From an uncultured Methanospirillum sp. (GTDB taxonomy: Archaea > Halobacteriota > Methanomicrobia > Methanomicrobiales > Methanospirillaceae), in assembly GCA_964637135.1 (NCBI GenBank), contig CAZWTX010000001.1, positions 1 to 64,000 on the forward strand: a stretch of DNA of 64,000 nt, written 5' to 3'. Positions 33,121-64,000 of the stretch are shown here, piece after piece (within the stretch, counting starts at the first letter, position 1; every line of letters begins with the position of its first letter). The notes beneath the pieces were generated by a model. That model saw only the letters and a list, made by a program, of their open reading frames with translations. It searched no databases and was not told the DNA's origin. A program made the translations under genes and the position numbers.

Positions 33121-33136
33121 TTTCACAATTGTGAAA
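33121..33136. promoter_or_regulatory. Perfect palindrome TTTCACAATTGTGAAA (putative sulfur-regulon operator)
   Basis: Between divergent sufS and nadA; the motif recurs at four other promoters of the sulfur locus. Confidence 0.8.
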
Positions 33137-34318: not shown

Positions 34319-34332
34319 GTCACAATTGTGAA
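34319..34332. promoter_or_regulatory. Operator-like site GTCACAATTGTGAA upstream of pscS-metY-metX
   Basis: 13/14 match to TTCACAATTGTGAA, about 37 bp before the ATG. Confidence 0.8.
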
Positions 34333-34368: not shown

Positions 34369-38513
<4,145 letters not shown>

Positions 38514-49765: not shown

Positions 49766-49836
49766 TACCCCAGCCCGGAATCGAACCAGGATTCGCTGAT
49801 CTGCAGTCAGCCACATAGCCTCTCGGCCACGCTGAT
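49766..49836 (-). pseudogene. Degenerate tRNA-Cys(GCA) copy 1
   Basis: Anticodon arm GCTGA-CTGCAGA-TCAGC and T arm CCTGG-TTCGATT-CCGGG are intact; acceptor stem ATCAGCG/CTGGGGT has 3 mismatches. Confidence 0.75.
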
Positions 49837-49941
49837 CGAGCCAGGCATCCGCATATCATCCAGATATATGTAGAATCTGAGATGGTGGGGAGGTTATGGG
49901 GGATCCGGTTCTCACCCAAAAGTCATCTCCGCTTGATCTGT

Positions 49942-53845: not shown

Positions 53846-53859
53846 TTCACAATTGTGAT
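53846..53859. promoter_or_regulatory. Operator-like site TTCACAATTGTGAT upstream of cysK paralog 2
   Basis: 13/14 match, about 19 bp from the start codon. Confidence 0.8.
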
Positions 53860-54136
53860 AGTGGTGATTATTGGATACCCTATCTAATAGGACTGCAGGT
53901 AGAGGCAATTATGGCAGGATATCCCGATCCAAAGAGAAATCTTGAGGCATCTATATCCTCATTCTCACTCATTATGTAGAGGAAGATCATACGTGTGTAT
54001 CACTTCGGTATACCCTGGTCCTGAATGTCTGGAATTCTGCGAAAAATAGATCATATATCCAGACCGGCATTCATCCCTTATTGAGGGAATGAGTCTGCAT
54101 GACGGGATATCCGGATTTTTATCCGATATGAATCGT

Positions 54137-54209
54137 GCCGGTGTGGCAGAGCGGCTAATGCGTTCGCCTGCAAAGCGAATTTCTGGGGGTTCAACTCCCT
54201 CCGCCGGCG
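54137..54209 (+). tRNA. tRNA-Cys(GCA), A37, apparent G73
   Basis: Full cloverleaf: GCCGGTG/CGCCGGC acceptor, TTCGC-CTGCAAA-GCGAA anticodon arm, GGGGG-TTCAACT-CCCTC T arm. Confidence 0.92.
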
Positions 54210-54231
54210 TAACCCACGATAAGGAGTTTTT

Positions 54232-55500
54232 TTGGTGGAACTATACAGTACATTGTCACGGACGGTTCAGCCTGTGGTTACGGTATCCCCCGGTCGTATC
54301 TCAATGTTTGTCTGTGGTCCCACGGTGTATGACTACGCTCATCTTGGCCATGCACGGACGTATGTTGTCTTTGATGTTCTTGCCAAATTCCTCCGGTTCA
54401 CCGGACTTGAGGTGTTCTACCTCCAGAACATTACCGACGTCGATGATAAGATCATCAACCGGGCAGAGGCTGACGGGGTATCCCAGCCGGTCCTGGCACG
54501 GACGTTTGAATTAGCGTACCTGGCAGATATGCAGTCTCTCGGGATTGATGCCGTGAGTTACTATGCACGGGCCACGACGCATATCCCTGAGATTGTCAAC
54601 CAGATCGAGCGGCTCGTTGCCAAAAAATCTGCGTATGTCACGGAATCAGGGGTCTACTTTGATCTTGATACCTATCCCCGGAACGGGGAACTCTCCGGGC
54701 AGAAGCGTGATAAAAGAGTCAGCCGGGTGACTGATACGACCAAACATAATCCCCAGGATTTTGCCCTCTGGAAGTTCGGGGAGTTTGGTGAGTATACCTG
54801 GGACTCACCCTGGGGCCGGGGCCGTCCTGGCTGGCATATCGAAGATACCGCGATCACGGAGAAGTACTTCGGGCAGCAGTACGATCTCCACGGAGGCGGA
54901 CTTGATCTCATCTTCCCTCATCATGAAGCCGAGATCGCCCAGATGGAATCGCTTGAAGGAAAGTACCCGATGGTGCGGTACTGGGTGCATACCGGATTCC
55001 TTACCATGGAAGGCGAGAAGATGTCAAAATCTCTCGGAAACTTTATTACCATCAGAAAGGCACTCTCCACCTGGAACAAAGATGTTCTCCGCTTTTTTAT
55101 CCTTCTCTCCCATTACCGCTCTCCCCTGCAGGCTTCGGATGAGGGGATTGAACGTGCACGGCAGGCCCTTGAACATATCCGGGCCATTGCCACGAAAGAC
55201 AACGGGGAGAACCCGGAGGGGAGGAGAGCATTCATCGAGGCCATGGAGGCTGACCTGAACACCCCGATGGCCCTGGCTGCCATTCAGAAGCTGGCATCCA
55301 GCGGGGATATCGAAGCACTCAGGATGTACGGCGAGATCCTCGGGATCACCTTCCTGCGTGAGGAATCGGTTCCGATCACGATCCTCCAGGATATCCGGGC
55401 AGAACTTCGTGCACGGCGAGCCTTCGATCTCGCTGATACCATCCGTGACCGGATGGTTTCTGCCGGAATCACCATCACGGATCCCCCATTAAAAAAATAA
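54232..55500 (+). CDS. cysS: Cysteine--tRNA ligase
   Basis: CGPTVYD..HLGH, NITDVDDK, GRPGWHIE, FPHHE, KMSKS, ADTIRD; RBS AAGGAG; 22 bp after the tRNA. Confidence 0.95.
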   Translation: MVELYSTLSRTVQPVVTVSPGRISMFVCGPTVYDYAHLGHARTYVVFDVLAKFLRFTGLEVFYLQNITDVDDKIINRAEADGVSQPVLARTFELAYLADMQSLGIDAVSYYARATTHIPEIVNQIERLVAKKSAYVTESGVYFDLDTYPRNGELSGQKRDKRVSRVTDTTKHNPQDFALWKFGEFGEYTWDSPWGRGRPGWHIEDTAITEKYFGQQYDLHGGGLDLIFPHHEAEIAQMESLEGKYPMVRYWVHTGFLTMEGEKMSKSLGNFITIRKALSTWNKDVLRFFILLSHYRSPLQASDEGIERARQALEHIRAIATKDNGENPEGRRAFIEAMEADLNTPMALAAIQKLASSGDIEALRMYGEILGITFLREESVPITILQDIRAELRARRAFDLADTIRDRMVSAGITITDPPLKK

Positions 55501-59166: not shown

Positions 59167-59180
59167 TTAACAATTGTGAA
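59167..59180. promoter_or_regulatory. Operator-like site TTAACAATTGTGAA
   Basis: 13/14 match; lies between the divergent ABC operon and DUF1890. Confidence 0.7.
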
Positions 59181-59277
59181 GATTGATATCCTTCAGGAAC
59201 CTTATCTGATCAGTACGGGACTGAACAGGTACCGGCTGGAATCAGTTCTGTTACATTCTGCTCAACCAGGACAAAAT

Positions 59278-59751
59278 ATGTCAGAGCCAGGGAAAACAGC
59301 ACTATTGGTACTTGGATGCCCTGAAGTGCCCATCCAGATGGCCCTTGCCCTTTTTGCCGGATACCATCTGAAAGCAAAGGGGTACCAGGTAATTTCTGCA
59401 GGGAATCCGGCGGTGATGAAACTGATCAGGACCTCGGATCCGGCCGGTCACTACCTTGACCAGTTTACATCACTTGAACGATCTATCGAGGGGATCACCG
59501 GAGGACAAACCACCTACGATCTCTGTCTCTGTTTTGCACACAACGATTCAGGGATTGCATATGCGGCAACCTTCCGGTATCTCCTTCCGGAGACCCGGCT
59601 GGTGACGGTGGTCTTCGGTCGGGAGGCAGAGGATCTTGCCACGAGGATCGAGTACGAAGGTGAGGTCATTATCGAGAAGGCGGTGCATAATCCGATTCCA
59701 CTCCGGAGAAAACTTCAGGAGGTGATGGGATGGGCTGCATCGAAGACCTGA
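59278..59751 (+). CDS. DUF1890 family methanogen protein
   Basis: ALLVLGCPEVP, FAHNDSG, AVHNP. Confidence 0.8.
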   Translation: MSEPGKTALLVLGCPEVPIQMALALFAGYHLKAKGYQVISAGNPAVMKLIRTSDPAGHYLDQFTSLERSIEGITGGQTTYDLCLCFAHNDSGIAYAATFRYLLPETRLVTVVFGREAEDLATRIEYEGEVIIEKAVHNPIPLRRKLQEVMGWAASKT

Positions 59752-60029
59752 CCTATGATGTGATCGCAAAAAACCTGAGTTTTGCCGAATCCAGAAAACT
59801 CATAGAGAACCGGTGTGATGAAACCCACCAGATAGAACCGGGATCCAAGCTCTTCGGTGAACCGATCATCGGCCCGCCGCCGATTGTGATCGGGATCGAT
59901 GGTGACGCTGTTTTCTTCCCCTATGTGAAACCCTGCCATGGCACCTTCCTCCTGCGCATCAGCGATCCGGAGGAGGTCAGCCGGATTCGTGAAAAAGTTC
60001 GATCTAAGATCCTCTCAAAACGTAGATAA
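59730..60029 (+). CDS. DUF1894 family methanogen protein
   Basis: MGCIE..IIGPPPIVIG..FPYVKPCHGTF. Confidence 0.8.
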   Translation: MGCIEDLTYDVIAKNLSFAESRKLIENRCDETHQIEPGSKLFGEPIIGPPPIVIGIDGDAVFFPYVKPCHGTFLLRISDPEEVSRIREKVRSKILSKRR

Positions 60030-60119: not shown

Positions 60120-60133
60120 TTCACAATCGTGAA
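60120..60133. promoter_or_regulatory. Operator-like site TTCACAATCGTGAA just upstream of a TATA-like box
   Basis: 13/14 match, followed by TTCATATA about 26 bp before ATG 60169. Confidence 0.72.
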
Positions 60134-60168
60134 CATTCATATAGGTATGAGACAGACATGTATTATAC

Positions 60169-60457
60169 ATGACAAGAAGGGATCGTTTTTGCCTCTACTG
60201 AGGCCGAAATTCAGTACACCAGAGTAATCGGGCATCTGCCACCATCGGCCAAACTGGTCTATCTGGCGCTCGAAAATGGAGAGCAACTGACTCAGAAAGA
60301 TCTCATTGGAAAGACCCGGCTCCCTCCACGGACAGTCCGGTACGCTATCCAGCGTCTGAAAGAGACTGAGATTGTCAGGGAGAGAATGAGTTACAAGGAC
60401 GCTCGTCAGAGTTTCTACATCTTAAATGAGGTGGTACCACTTTCACAGGCTGCCTGA
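60169..60457 (+). CDS. Archaeal MarR/TrmB-like wHTH regulator requiring a +1 frameshift (not in the ORF track)
   Basis: Frame 60173-60457 encodes LPPSAKLVYLALENGEQLTQKDLIGKTRLPPRTVRYAIQRLKE..DARQSFY with no in-frame ATG/GTG/TTG ahead of the domain; ATG 60169 opens MTRRDRFCLY* in the adjacent frame. Confidence 0.82.
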
Positions 60458-60781
60458 TTCCTTGGTCTCCCGGGTCTTTGACCCTTTTCTTTTTATCATC
60501 CTGCAAGCCCGAGAGTTACATTCACGATATCTTCACCGTTCTATTCATCGTATTCATCCAATCAATGAGTTTCAGACCTGACGGCCTCTTGATCGAAAAA
60601 CCCCCATCTGGTCTATCACTGTGATGAGTTTTCATCGAATCATCCCATGAACAGAAGATCAGGATTTTTATGTCAGTATTGCCGTGATGGACAGCGACGG
60701 ATTCAGGACGAATTCCCACGAACTGTATCGGCAAGGAAGTGACTTTGAAGGCTTGAAAAAAAAATAGGATTTTGGAATGAA

Positions 60782-62134
60782 TCAGAGCGGGCCGACAAAG
60801 GAACTGATCAGTTCTTCCATAAGGGAGAGTCCCCCCTCATATCCGGCAAGACTCCGGTTCAGGATGAGCCGGTTGTATGCCGGGAACGAGATCGTGACCG
60901 GGTTTGCCCCGAGGCCGAAGTCGGCAAGGGCGGTCGGTGCCTCAAGGGAACTGGCGAAGAGGAAGAGGGCTGATCGTCCTTTTAGATTCTCCTTGATCAG
61001 GTGTGAATCGCTCTCAAACCGGATCTCGGGAACCACCGGGGTTTCAAGACCGGTGGACAGTGCCCTGACGATATCGTCCCTGACCTCTTCAGGCGGGTTG
61101 TCCGTTACCTGGATAAGGTCCGGGAGGTACCCAAGTTCATTGATCAGGAACCTGCTCACGCCGATCGCGGTCCCTGAGTCTGCCACCACCGAGAAGTAGG
61201 CATGTGGTCTGACAAGGACAAGGGCATCTCCCCCGTACTCGATGAACCGGTATGCCCGCTGTTCTTCCTCTTTGATCACCGACTCTACCAGATCGGAGGG
61301 AACCTTGAAGTGTTTCCCGATGGTCCGGAGGAACGCTGCGGTCTGCTTGGGGCCGATCGGCACCGAGGGGAACGCAAGGTACGGCTGATCGAACTTCTCT
61401 TTCAGTTTCCCAGCGGTCTTGATCCCGTTCCAGGTCGAGAGAACGACGTTTAGCGATGCAGATGGGATCTGCTTGAGCTGGGCTGCTCCGTCAAACTCCG
61501 CGGCAAAGACCCTGGCCTTGACGCCGATCCGTGCCAGGAGCTGTTTGATTGCTCTTGTATCTCCTTTCCAGAAGATATGCTGATATGGCACGACTCCGAA
61601 GATGTTCACCGTCTTGTCTTCTTTCGGCAGGGGAACGAGAAGATCTTCGATGACGGCATCGAAGAAGAGCTCGTACCCGTCATAGGAGGTACCGTTGAAC
61701 CCCGAGGTCTTCACGTGGATGACATCTGCCGTGTCCTTAAACTCCCGGACGACTGCGTTGACATCATCGCCGATCAGGGACGGGACACAACCGGTGATCA
61801 CGGCATAGATATCCCCATCCATGACCTCGATTGTAGAACTGATCAGATGGCGGAGTTTGTCTTCTCCACCGAAGACCACATGATGCTCCACGAGTCCTGA
61901 ACAGGGGGAACTGGTTCCTCCCTGGGGACCTCCGGCATTCTGACCACCGGCATAGAGTTGTCCAAAGAGCTGTCCGATACCACAGCCGGCTCCTGAATGG
62001 AGGATCGGCACCACACCGAAGATGCCGACCGCGGTTGCATAGGCTCCACCAAGGGCACAACTATACCGCGGGGCCTCGATTGCTCCAAGACCATTTTCCG
62101 TGGATGGTGCTTCTGCTTCTATAGGGGGTGTCAT
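60782..62134 (-). CDS. Nitrogenase-like component 1 beta subunit (group IV, MarK-like)
   Basis: RYSCALGG, HSGAGC, VVFGGE, ITGC..IGDD (three P-cluster-type Cys). Confidence 0.88.
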   Translation of the reverse strand: MTPPIEAEAPSTENGLGAIEAPRYSCALGGAYATAVGIFGVVPILHSGAGCGIGQLFGQLYAGGQNAGGPQGGTSSPCSGLVEHHVVFGGEDKLRHLISSTIEVMDGDIYAVITGCVPSLIGDDVNAVVREFKDTADVIHVKTSGFNGTSYDGYELFFDAVIEDLLVPLPKEDKTVNIFGVVPYQHIFWKGDTRAIKQLLARIGVKARVFAAEFDGAAQLKQIPSASLNVVLSTWNGIKTAGKLKEKFDQPYLAFPSVPIGPKQTAAFLRTIGKHFKVPSDLVESVIKEEEQRAYRFIEYGGDALVLVRPHAYFSVVADSGTAIGVSRFLINELGYLPDLIQVTDNPPEEVRDDIVRALSTGLETPVVPEIRFESDSHLIKENLKGRSALFLFASSLEAPTALADFGLGANPVTISFPAYNRLILNRSLAGYEGGLSLMEELISSFVGPL

Positions 62135-63687
62135 TATTCTGCCTCTTTTATCAGGTAGTAGAGCGGGTCAGGCTGGGCATAGAACCACTCCTTGTAACTG
62201 TCGGCGGTCTTCTCCTTGAGAGTCTTCTGGAATGCCGAACTCTTCAGGGACTGGAGCAGGAAGTTACCGTAGGCGACTGCTCCCGTGTACCCGCTCTGGG
62301 TGCTCCACGGGTGCGGATCTCCTCTCAGTGCATGAATCCTGGTCATTCCCTTCTCACGCTTGTACGCTCCTCCCTGGAACGGGCAGGAGAGGGTCAGGTC
62401 GGGGTCAACCTTCCGAGTGATATGTGCCTGTTCGGCAGCCTGGAAGGTATTGATCAGGAGATCGAAGTCACCGATCCGTTTCACGAGATCCTCAAGCTCC
62501 TCAAGGATCAGGTTGTCATAGTCCTGGGACATGGCAGCCGGCGATGCGATCCCGAGTTCGTCGAAGTACGGGAGCTGGGCAAGGAGCCGCCCCTGTCCGA
62601 GGGATCCAAGAACCGAGAGTTTTCTCCCCTTTTCCTCGGCAATCCGGTCGAACTCTGCCCTGATGGCATGAAGTTTCGGCTTCCAGGTCGCATGCTCCTC
62701 GGTGATGAGGTTCTCAATCTCTACTTCCTTTCCAGTGTATTTTCCGATCTCACGAAGCCATCCGTCGGTGTTGGCAAATCCCATCGGGGACGGGTAGAGG
62801 AAGAACGGAACCCCGTGCTCCTGTTCAAGGCCGCGAGAGATATAGTCGGTATAGGTCGGGCAGAGCGGTGCCGTTACGGCAGCAGATGAGAGCTGCTGGA
62901 ACTGCTCGACGGTTGCAAACTCCGGAACCAGGTTTGCCCGGAGACCTACTTTTCCGAGCAGGCGCTGCACTTCCATCCGGTCCTGCCAGGTATAGGAGAG
63001 CATGCTCGCGACGTTGACCAGGTCGGGCTGTTTCTCCGTGGGCTTCTTGACCAGGTACTTCAGGATGGCATGCCAGAAGGCATCGTATCCGGTCTGGACA
63101 AGCCGGGATCTGACTCCCTCACAATGAACCGGAACCAGGGTTGATTTGATGTGGGGCTGCACATCGGCAACCACTCCTTCAATATCCTCCCCGATGATCC
63201 CGGTCGTACAGGAGGTCAGGATGAAGATTGCCTTCGGGTCATATCTCCGCTCGGCCTCAAGGATCGCCTTCTTGAGCTTGTCTCCGGCCCCGTAGACCAC
63301 GTCCTGCTCCCGCAGGTTGGTGGTCATCCAGTGCATTTCGTAATTGGCTGGTCTGCCAAACTCGACTGGAACCCCCCGGTAGAGTTCCCGGTATCCAAGG
63401 GCGGAAGAGGAACATCCAACCGGTGCATGGAAGATCGTTGCCGCATCACGGATGGTCGAGATCCGGACCGAGAGGTAGAAGTTGAGGGAACAGCCGGACG
63501 TCTGCTGAAATCCCCGTTCATGGTTCTTCAGGCAGCCGCCTTTGGCCTGCTCCACGAGCTCGCTTGCCTTTCCGTAGAAGATGTTGACTCCTCCGGCACG
63601 TTGCTCCCGGTTTGGACAGGTCGGCTGGGAAAGATCGATCTTGCGCTCGAAGTACTCCTTCTCCGCCTCTTCAGTATTTTTGTACAT
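62134..63687 (-). CDS. Nitrogenase-like component 1 alpha subunit (group IV, MarD-like)
   Basis: REQR, QTSGC, HAPVGC, TTNLREQDVVYG, TSCTTGIIGED, HCEG, PLCPT. Confidence 0.88.
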   Translation of the reverse strand: MYKNTEEAEKEYFERKIDLSQPTCPNREQRAGGVNIFYGKASELVEQAKGGCLKNHERGFQQTSGCSLNFYLSVRISTIRDAATIFHAPVGCSSSALGYRELYRGVPVEFGRPANYEMHWMTTNLREQDVVYGAGDKLKKAILEAERRYDPKAIFILTSCTTGIIGEDIEGVVADVQPHIKSTLVPVHCEGVRSRLVQTGYDAFWHAILKYLVKKPTEKQPDLVNVASMLSYTWQDRMEVQRLLGKVGLRANLVPEFATVEQFQQLSSAAVTAPLCPTYTDYISRGLEQEHGVPFFLYPSPMGFANTDGWLREIGKYTGKEVEIENLITEEHATWKPKLHAIRAEFDRIAEEKGRKLSVLGSLGQGRLLAQLPYFDELGIASPAAMSQDYDNLILEELEDLVKRIGDFDLLINTFQAAEQAHITRKVDPDLTLSCPFQGGAYKREKGMTRIHALRGDPHPWSTQSGYTGAVAYGNFLLQSLKSSAFQKTLKEKTADSYKEWFYAQPDPLYYLIKEAE

Positions 63688-63695
63688 GTTTGCTC

Positions 63696-64000
63696 CTATC
63701 TGGCCCTGACCGACTCGGCAGACCGGGCATTGCCCGGCTGCACGGTCAGTTCATTATCTGTCTTCGTCTCGAGCAGCCGGTCAGACCAGGACTCTGCCCA
63801 TGCCTTCAATTCATCAGCCTCGAGTGGTTTTGGTACATACCGCTCCTCATTGCCGAGAATGGTTCTCGCCAGGATCCGGTATTTCTCTGCCTGTTCGGAA
63901 TCAGGATCGTATTCTACCGCCGTCTGTCCACGCAGTTCGCTCCTCGTGATCGTGGGAGACCGCGGGATGTATCCGGCTATGGTGGTTGAGGTCTTTGCGG
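63696..64000 (-). CDS. NifH-like Fe protein (MarH-like), 3' part only
   Basis: Hand translation: ..GYIPRSPTITRSELRGQTAVEYDPDSEQAEKYRILA..PKPLEADELKAWAESWSDRLL..*; the start lies beyond the window. Confidence 0.85.
   Translation of the reverse strand, partial: AKTSTTIAGYIPRSPTITRSELRGQTAVEYDPDSEQAEKYRILARTILGNEERYVPKPLEADELKAWAESWSDRLLETKTDNELTVQPGNARSAESVRAR

Follow-up and report, generated by a model that had tools for sequence, protein, structure and literature searches.

The closest described counterpart of the locus reported here is the RF2 gene, prfB, whose +1 shift sites are CUU_U and UUU_U with a close 5′ Shine-Dalgarno (SD) sequence, according to the accessible portions of PMC5009743. 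Hungry-codon +1 shifts are a second point of reference, and the same portions of that review state that, as of 2016, no hungry-codon trans-frame protein with a starvation-specific function was known (PMC5009743). With respect to archaea, the frameshifts listed in the available part of PMC8211752 are Sulfolobus fucA1 (−1), the Mg-chelatase of Methanococcales (−1) and those of haloviruses (−1, with HSTV-2 probably +1), none of which either senses an amino acid or represents an SD-stimulated +1 shift in a chromosomal gene; as far as their available text extends, neither review names a chromosomal +1 frameshift in archaea (PMC8211752, PMC5009743). Frameshifting as a sensor that makes a regulator of metabolite supply is known, from the part of the literature at hand, in the +1 shift of antizyme, which is eukaryotic and senses polyamines. 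A stop codon occupies the A site in antizyme, while the yeast cases Ty1, EST3 and ABP140 shift at a slowly decoded sense codon. In the polycysteine uORFs of Actinobacteria, a Cys leader gauges Cys-tRNA and controls a separate gene further downstream by way of RNA structure or termination of transcription.

Here we describe a locus from an uncultured Methanospirillum sp. in which a winged-helix (wHTH) regulator is probably made by a programmed +1 frameshift that senses Cys-tRNA. That programmed +1 shifting is used at all, whichever the sign of its response, we regard as highly probable. The locus lies near the end of the 64,000-nucleotide stretch of DNA that was analysed (the window), and its features are collected in Table 1.

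Table 1. Positions of the shift-site locus and of related elements in the window
Feature	Position	Strand	Basis or remark
Zero-frame leader ORF, 10 codons	60169..60201	+	Sequence; Phe-Cys are codons 7-8
+1 frame: linker and winged-helix DNA-binding domain	60188..60457	+	LPPS at 60236
Shift site UUU-U	60187..60190	+	CUU-U in about a third of homologues
A-site Cys codon TGC, putative sensor codon	60190..60192	+	Invariant Cys codon among homologues
Internal SD-like stimulator, predicted	60175..60184	+	16S 3′ tail pairing, −9.1 kcal/mol
TATA-like box (TTTATNTA-like in orthologues)	60136..60143	+	Sequence and alignment
Hairpin and T-tract after stop, terminator-like	60472..60494	+	Consensus match only; shuffle mean 0.4
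Palindromic sulfur-regulon operator, putative (consensus TTMACAATTGTKAA)	60120..60133	.	2 nt upstream of TATA-like box, covers BRE position
Operator copy	33122..33135	.	Between divergent sufS and nadA
Operator copy	34319..34332	.	Before SepCysS (pscS)-metY-metX
Operator copy	53846..53859	.	Just before cysK ribosome-binding site
Operator copy	59167..59180	.	Overlaps TATA-like box of DUF1890-DUF1894
tRNA-Cys(GCA)	54136..54210	+	Directly before cysS (CysRS, 54232-55500)
Second tRNA-Cys(GCA)	49767..49837	-	One of three in this genome

As the preliminary description of this DNA had reported, the stop-to-stop frame of the regulator (60173-60457, 94 aa) has no ATG, GTG or TTG ahead of the domain, that is, before LPPS, and an out-of-frame ATG opens a short leader that contains TTT-TGC. 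This leader runs from ATG (60169-71) through ACA, AGA, AGG, GAT and CGT to TTT (60187-89), TGC (60190-92), CTC, TAC and the stop codon TGA (60199-201), with a run of five Ts (T5) at 60186-60190. The slip into the regulator frame that had been proposed there also works on paper, as conceptual translation with a +1 step at TTTT yields a single open product of 95 aa (P0152). The SD-like element said to end 3 nt before TTT is present, although its best predicted duplex reaches C 60184, so that the last pair lies at −3 from the P-site codon and the spacer is 2 nt; the 16S tail used for this pairing came from 16S genes of relatives, the 16S gene of this genome (G000) being unassembled. Twenty-five nucleotides separate the end of the TATA-like 8-mer from the ATG, compared with 29 nt in the aligned orthologues, and transcription would start a few nucleotides before the leader ATG. 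The suggestion that the message is leaderless is plausible within the genus, where upstream SD pairing is weak (+0.6 to −3.5 kcal/mol in the 8 loci listed), yet an upstream SD is found in 87% of cassette loci overall.

In terms of its protein family, the regulator matches Pfam HTH_24 above the cut-off and MarR_2 below it. A comparison with NCBIfam at 1e-8 gave no match, comparison with solved structures gave weak MarR matches only, and an Atlas search returned only generic archaeal wHTH clusters. The protein belongs with the small wHTH regulators of archaea, which carry the database labels MarR/ArsR-like. Database start sites for its relatives are inconsistent, with lengths of 63, 66 and 78 aa within one 90% cluster.

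A sequencing error, or a pseudogene with one extra T, would account for the arrangement without any frameshift, and the gene is indeed patchy, being present in 13 of the 25 genomes of the genus. Against this, contigs from two other studies (X3 and X6) cross the T5 site with no difference and no gap. The comparison is one of contigs; a further contig (X1) agrees but may be the source assembly, and another (X2), which begins 11 nt before the T5 run, was not counted as bridging. Given these identical contigs and the same phase in 172 homologous loci (see below), the caveat of an extra T raised in the preliminary description is excluded, and we assign error or pseudogene formation a vanishingly small probability. 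Contigs of other organisms, found in X1 and X3, match a 1.3-kb stretch around the site only at 60169-60208, which is the cassette itself.

Homologues were sought with an alignment of the domain only, so the cassette was unable to bias their recovery. The search covered 317 genomes from the order, 401 from the phylum and metagenomes, of whose 339 loci the best 80 were taken; further loci were added that were picked for diversity. From 254 matches we obtained 226 distinct loci with enough 5′ sequence, four being too short at the 5′ end and duplicates having been collapsed; two truncated or spurious entries (L026, L027) were left unscored. The cassette, defined as ATG, 0-3 codons, an SD-like hexamer, one codon and (T/C)TT-TG(C/T) with the regulator in the +1 frame, occurs in this phase in 172 of the 226. 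Of these, 74 come from metagenomes and the remainder from 26 genera in 11 coded families; the genomes concerned are related and hence not independent, and many are incomplete. The first classifier required TGY, and the codons were recounted with no condition on the P- or A-site codon, anchoring only on the ATG and then on the SD-like hexamer. This recount found the +1 phase in 171 loci, an in-frame arrangement in 3, the third phase in 1 and no leader in 51; one of the 51 (L145) is a cassette by the first classifier and brings the total to 172. A conserved out-of-frame ATG with TTT-TG(C/T) among orthologues, named beforehand as the decisive observation, was thus found.

The cassette extends to homologues with as little as 50% domain identity. 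Within Methanospirillum, the 11 other orthologues whose 5′ end is present share 61-66% protein identity, and every one retains the out-of-frame ATG and TTT-TGY; in the genus of G608 the gene is present in 13 of 35 genomes, with the cassette in 15 of 15 matches. Names attached to close database proteins include Methanospirillum, Methanoregula, Methanocella and Methanotrichaceae. Several genomes or loci hold multiple cassette-bearing paralogues, sometimes in tandem (three copies in G294, two in G161, and L148, L150, L151 and L294). Conversely, the cassette is missing from 20 loci of seven further families (probably haloarchaea) and from the wHTH paralogues of the GTTAAC type, all of which have an in-frame ATG. 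A handful of exceptions, comprising an intact cassette in frame (L262), an intact cassette out of phase (L213), a second gene with a degenerate in-frame leader (L326) and a CTA shift codon (L159), may be assembly errors or constitutive or dead alleles. Scans with loose DNA patterns were set aside: of the 80 listed among 112 matching stretches, 4 carried the name Methanospirillum and the rest mostly from unrelated bacteria, as by chance, and a second scan, which matched 296 of 317 genomes and gave many control matches, was uninformative.

The 171 loci scored without any codon condition reveal a strikingly constrained shift site. The A-site codon is TGT in 94, TGC in 77 and nothing else, and the P-site codon is TTT in 117, CTT in 53 and CTA in 1, with a P-site Phe codon that is never TTC (two rows were re-anchored by one codon for these counts). 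A quick tree built on only 70 columns implies at least 8 changes between TGC and TGT and at least 8 between TTT and CTT, and none to a non-Cys codon. The distance from ATG to Cys is a whole number of codons (5, 6, 7 or 8) in 171 of 171, in an anchor search that permitted whole codons only. Downstream, the +1 frame is open to LPPS in every locus (shuffle expectation 0.47 per locus), while a stop codon interrupts frame 0 ahead of LPPS in 165 of 171 loci and frame +2 in 164, and an in-frame ATG in that interval is absent in 164. Because Phe-Ala/Val in the +1 frame automatically makes TGY, selection on the protein is a partial confound; against it, the +1-frame residue after Phe is only ever Ala or Val, where the next positions allow 11-16 residues each, and TTC never encodes the Phe.

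The SD-like element is constrained in a different manner. Its hexamer variants (AGG, AGT or GGG, followed by GAT, AAT or GGT) are non-synonymous and never synonymous, which indicates that selection acts on the nucleotides, and the codon between hexamer and P site varies in sequence and is constant in length. Computed duplexes with the 16S tail average about −10.7 kcal/mol, against a background of −2.5 kcal/mol (5th percentile −6.3), and end at −3 from the P codon, a spacer of 2 nt, in 170 of 171 loci; for initiation SDs, the commonest distance to the ATG is 4 nt. The 50 nt downstream gave no sign of a stimulatory structure (mean MFE z 0.02 over 56 representatives). A −1 programmed frameshift with slippery heptamer and 3′ structure was rejected, as the product is in the +1 frame and there is no 3′ structure. 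A TTG behind the internal SD at initiation-like spacing was likewise dismissed as a gene start, since it opens a +2 ORF of 1-35 codons with no conservation.

These constraints bear on readings that dispense with ribosomal frameshifting. The leader could be a Cys-sensing uORF, with the regulator starting at an ATC or ATT (or GTG) inside the SD-like element and a stalled leader ribosome hiding that start. A +1-frame ATC or ATT lies within the SD in 170 of 171 loci, 23 loci have an in-frame GTG ahead of it, database entries place starts here, and the sign would be right for a repressor. However, such a start leaves unexplained why only TTT or CTT, and never TTC, GTT or ATT, precedes TG(C/T), and it would have to compete as a near-cognate codon with an ATG at least 7 nt away. 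Moreover, the spacing of the upstream SD suits the ATG, changes in the distance between ATG and ATC come in whole codons, and one locus has GTC at the ATC position. We consider this reading unlikely; the possibility of an ATC/ATT start, acknowledged from the outset, is weakened by the codon constraint and the SD spacing and keeps a small probability.

Termination at the end of the leader followed by a restart in the linker would also have the right sign for a repressor, and the frame-0 stop does lie within 8 codons past Cys in 164 of 171 loci. Yet 148 of 171 linkers lack ATG, GTG and TTG altogether, and 15 different codons occur at −3 from LPPS. The linker has also stayed open and in phase through at least 32 length changes on the tree, which a downstream restart would not need, and reinitiation therefore appears very unlikely. 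Even less probable is transcriptional slippage on the T run with removal of one U. Such slippage normally needs longer runs; the TTT variants do have a T5 run, but in the 53 CTT variants the C is followed by no more than three Ts, and the SD and the Cys codon would be left unexplained.

By contrast, the conserved pattern strongly supports the prediction of a programmed, prfB-like +1 shift at YUU-U while a Cys codon occupies the A site. The cassette and prfB have in common a short zero-frame ORF, a functional protein in the +1 frame with no start of its own, a CUU_U or UUU_U shift codon (170 of 171, with one CUA), an internal SD just 5′ of the shift site (here a computed pairing) and, as far as is apparent here, no 3′ structure. 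The likeness to prfB drawn in the preliminary description thus held in at least 170 of 171 loci for shift codon, internal SD and +1 frame. The differences are equally clear. The A site holds UGU or UGC, a Cys sense codon, in place of UGA; the product is a transcription factor, whereas RF2 itself decodes its A-site codon; the host is archaeal; and the shift falls at codon 5-8 rather than 26. Furthermore, the predicted SD pairing involves the GAUC portion of the 16S tail, and the duplex ends 2 nt before the shift codon. The cassette is therefore best described as predicted to work like prfB, with the Cys codon replacing the stop, and not as a member of the prfB family.

Other known systems share individual elements with the cassette. 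A P-site slip while the A site awaits a scarce aminoacyl-tRNA, as proposed here, is the hallmark of hungry-codon +1 shifts, the difference being that the A-site codon here matches the pathway of the neighbouring genes. A short leader with one or more Cys codons recalls leader-peptide attenuators, from which the cassette differs in that the downstream frame lacks its own start and is kept in the +1 phase.

With regard to this gene context, the window holds a sulfur cluster of cysE, cysK, sufS, nadA, SepCysS, metY/metX, a radical SAM gene, a second cysK and DUF1890/1894 (cysE, metY and metX are names we assume from their translations), together with a tRNA-Cys gene beside cysS and another tRNA-Cys gene. 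A third tRNA-Cys gene lies elsewhere in the genome (G000:C1:66982-67052), and relatives have up to three per cluster. More broadly, a sulfur gene or tRNA-Cys accompanies 94 of 163 cassette loci (median 3.2 kb) versus 0 of 47 cassette-less homologues, with tRNA-Cys in 56 of the 163. Among Methanospirillum genomes, many of them incomplete, CysRS is found in 9 of 13 with the regulator gene versus 0 of 12 without, and CysK in 11 of 13 versus 2 of 12. Several tRNA-Cys genes stand directly behind the operator (L399, L400 and L401 among the loci), and tRNA-Cys itself thus looks to be transcriptionally regulated. The invariant Cys codon, the tRNA-Cys, SepCysS and CysK neighbours and the co-occurrence with CysRS lend indirect support to the proposal that Cys-tRNA is sensed.

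Several neighbouring genes are of interest in their own right. SepCysS (34369-35733) is a long form of 454 aa, whose family match is preceded by some 60 additional N-terminal residues. The DUF1890-DUF1894 pair (59167-60029 with its operator) sits behind an operator and directly upstream of the regulator, a position that, as a prediction from context, ties both unknown families to sulfur metabolism. An operon similar to nifH/D/K extends from 60782 to 64000 and on to about 64600 of G000:C1, downstream of LarE-like, ThiI-like and tRNA-Cys genes, and scores below the NCBIfam nitrogenase cut-offs; similar genes occur in 10 of 163 cassette loci. We take it to resemble the sulfur-scavenging clusters of the methylthio-alkane reductase type.

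Seven sites in this genome match the palindrome of the putative operator with at most one mismatch, and five of these are in the window. The two others, each with one mismatch, lie before a Cas1-like ORF (G000:C81:1922; the name is our assumption), where the match is probably due to chance, and at the start of a UbaA/MoeB-like gene (C13:24689). Of 171 cassette loci, 129 have a site with at most one mismatch no more than 130 nt from the leader ATG, and in other genomes the operator precedes genes for tRNA-Cys, SepCysS, IscS/SufS, CysK, MetY, ThiI, a LarE-like sulfur transferase and a sulfonate-binding protein. Such operators cover the TATA box or lie beyond it (before tRNA-Cys, SepCysS, IscS and CysK), and in archaeal promoters an operator over or downstream of the TATA box means repression. 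A problem of sign follows: if starvation induced the shift and the product were itself the repressor at these positions, it would shut off Cys supply when that supply is short, which makes little sense.

A second candidate for the operator-binding protein is a small HTH_3 protein with an invariant Pro-Cys and CxxC (G000:C8:49121-49444, equivalent to L430:3122-3445), which we presume to be COG2522-like. Its homologues (L421:3884-4207, L398:12427-12768) are usually divergent from iscS across an operator, and genomes without the frameshifted gene often have the operator beside this protein; the genome scan for the palindrome found no operator near the HTH_3 gene of this organism itself. An alignment of the COG2522-like proteins found no solved relative. 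Among 317 genomes, those with both genes have the operator in 69 of 72 cases, those with the wHTH gene alone in 2 of 2, those with the HTH_3 gene alone in 81 of 127 and those with neither in 7 of 116. For the wHTH gene the total is 71 of 74, its presence being called by an E-value cut-off that may miss weak members. Because the operator tracks the HTH_3 protein better, this protein rather than the wHTH regulator is the likelier operator-binding repressor, with the wHTH gene probably one of its targets. It is a candidate sulfur-sensing repressor of methanogens, analogous to IscR.

Nevertheless, the wHTH gene tracks operator number within the groups coded g1 and g21. Two or more perfect operators occur in 40 of 41 g21 genomes with the gene versus 3 of 38 without, and in 10 of 12 versus 0 of 8 in Methanospirillum, so the wHTH protein may still bind the operator. 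A copy of the sulfur operator thus does lie at the regulator's own promoter, as first described, though the regulator is only a candidate for reading it, given the repressor-type positions and the better prediction by the HTH_3 protein. A further palindrome, ATTG-N3-CAAT, occurs ahead of the promoter in 32 of 171 cassette loci, chiefly those of the CTT clade; in 21 of the 32 it stands 6-7 nt upstream of the TATA-like box (loci including L142-L154, L449 and L453). It precedes a CysK-like gene in one of five genomes scanned, and its position makes it a possible activator site. As a separate observation, the in-frame wHTH paralogues (L013-L025, L277-L289) often adjoin a distant HTH_3 paralogue behind a GTTAAC-N3-GTTAAC palindrome, which suggests that the two families may work as pairs.

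The operator data leave room for a reading with the opposite sign, in which a constant fraction of ribosomes slips at YUU-U, the protein is a palindrome-binding repressor, and zero-frame ribosomes stalled at the Cys codon cover the start and keep further ribosomes from loading, so that less protein is made in starvation. Repressor-type operator positions and the gene-operator link in g1 and g21 fit this scheme, as do the second Cys codon that follows in 53 of 171 leaders and a leader short enough for a stalled ribosome to cover the ATG. It conflicts with the behaviour of RF2-type and hungry-codon slippage, which competes with A-site decoding according to the accessible parts of PMC5009743 and PMC8915115, and with the operator's presence in the 81 of 127 genomes that lack the wHTH gene and have the COG2522-like protein. 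We regard this scheme as rather unlikely.

Returning to shifting induced by Cys-tRNA shortage, we propose the following model. Ribosomes would initiate at the out-of-frame ATG, and once 4-7 codons have been read, the tRNA in the P site (tRNA-Phe on UUU or tRNA-Leu on CUU) would wait at an empty Cys codon, with the 16S tail meanwhile paired to the internal SD at a spacing closer than in normal initiation. With ample Cys-tRNA, the ribosome would decode Cys and soon stop, releasing a throw-away peptide; with Cys-tRNA scarce, the P-site tRNA would re-pair on the overlapping UUU and the winged-helix protein would be made. Comparison of the loci establishes how the cassette is built and phased, which codons it tolerates, its potential for SD pairing and its link to genes of Cys-tRNA supply, and from these we infer that shifting occurs and rises on Cys limitation. 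As to the product, we give roughly equal weight to either side of the proposal that it switches on the cysteine and tRNA-Cys genes, either by activation or by countering repression, at a step after a separate HTH repressor that is liganded by Cys and binds the palindrome. Transcriptional derepression and the translational shift would then form a two-step gate. Whether the whole constitutes an archaeal aminoacyl-tRNA gauge, in which Cys-tRNA shortage yields a factor that raises tRNA-Cys, SepCysS, CysRS and CysK in a homeostatic loop like that of prfB, is a question on which we are evenly divided.

Our literature search, with subscription journals mostly outside its scope, found no prior description of the gene or the cassette. 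The word 'frameshift' is absent from the text of a Ribo-seq paper on M. mazei (PMC11456600), and the leader and domain motifs are absent from those of its supplements that were searched (11 of 14 files, one in part) and from one supplement of PMC12704099. The available parts of the GeneTack survey (PMC3711429) do not mention the gene, and those of PMC7585200 and PMC10846266 contain nothing on either regulator.

The cassette, only about 20 nt long and conserved across 11 families, is, as read from sequence, a new form of regulatory +1 frameshifting. If the model is correct, archaeal ribosomes use mRNA-16S pairing during elongation, and a natural, functional hungry-codon switch has escaped annotation across 11 families of methanogens and related organisms. 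The locus also points to an operator and a second candidate regulator, and it opens the question of how cysteine, and the tRNA-dependent synthesis of cysteine, are controlled in methanogens. Many of these organisms keep a regulator out of frame, in what looks like a built-in sensor of cysteine supply.
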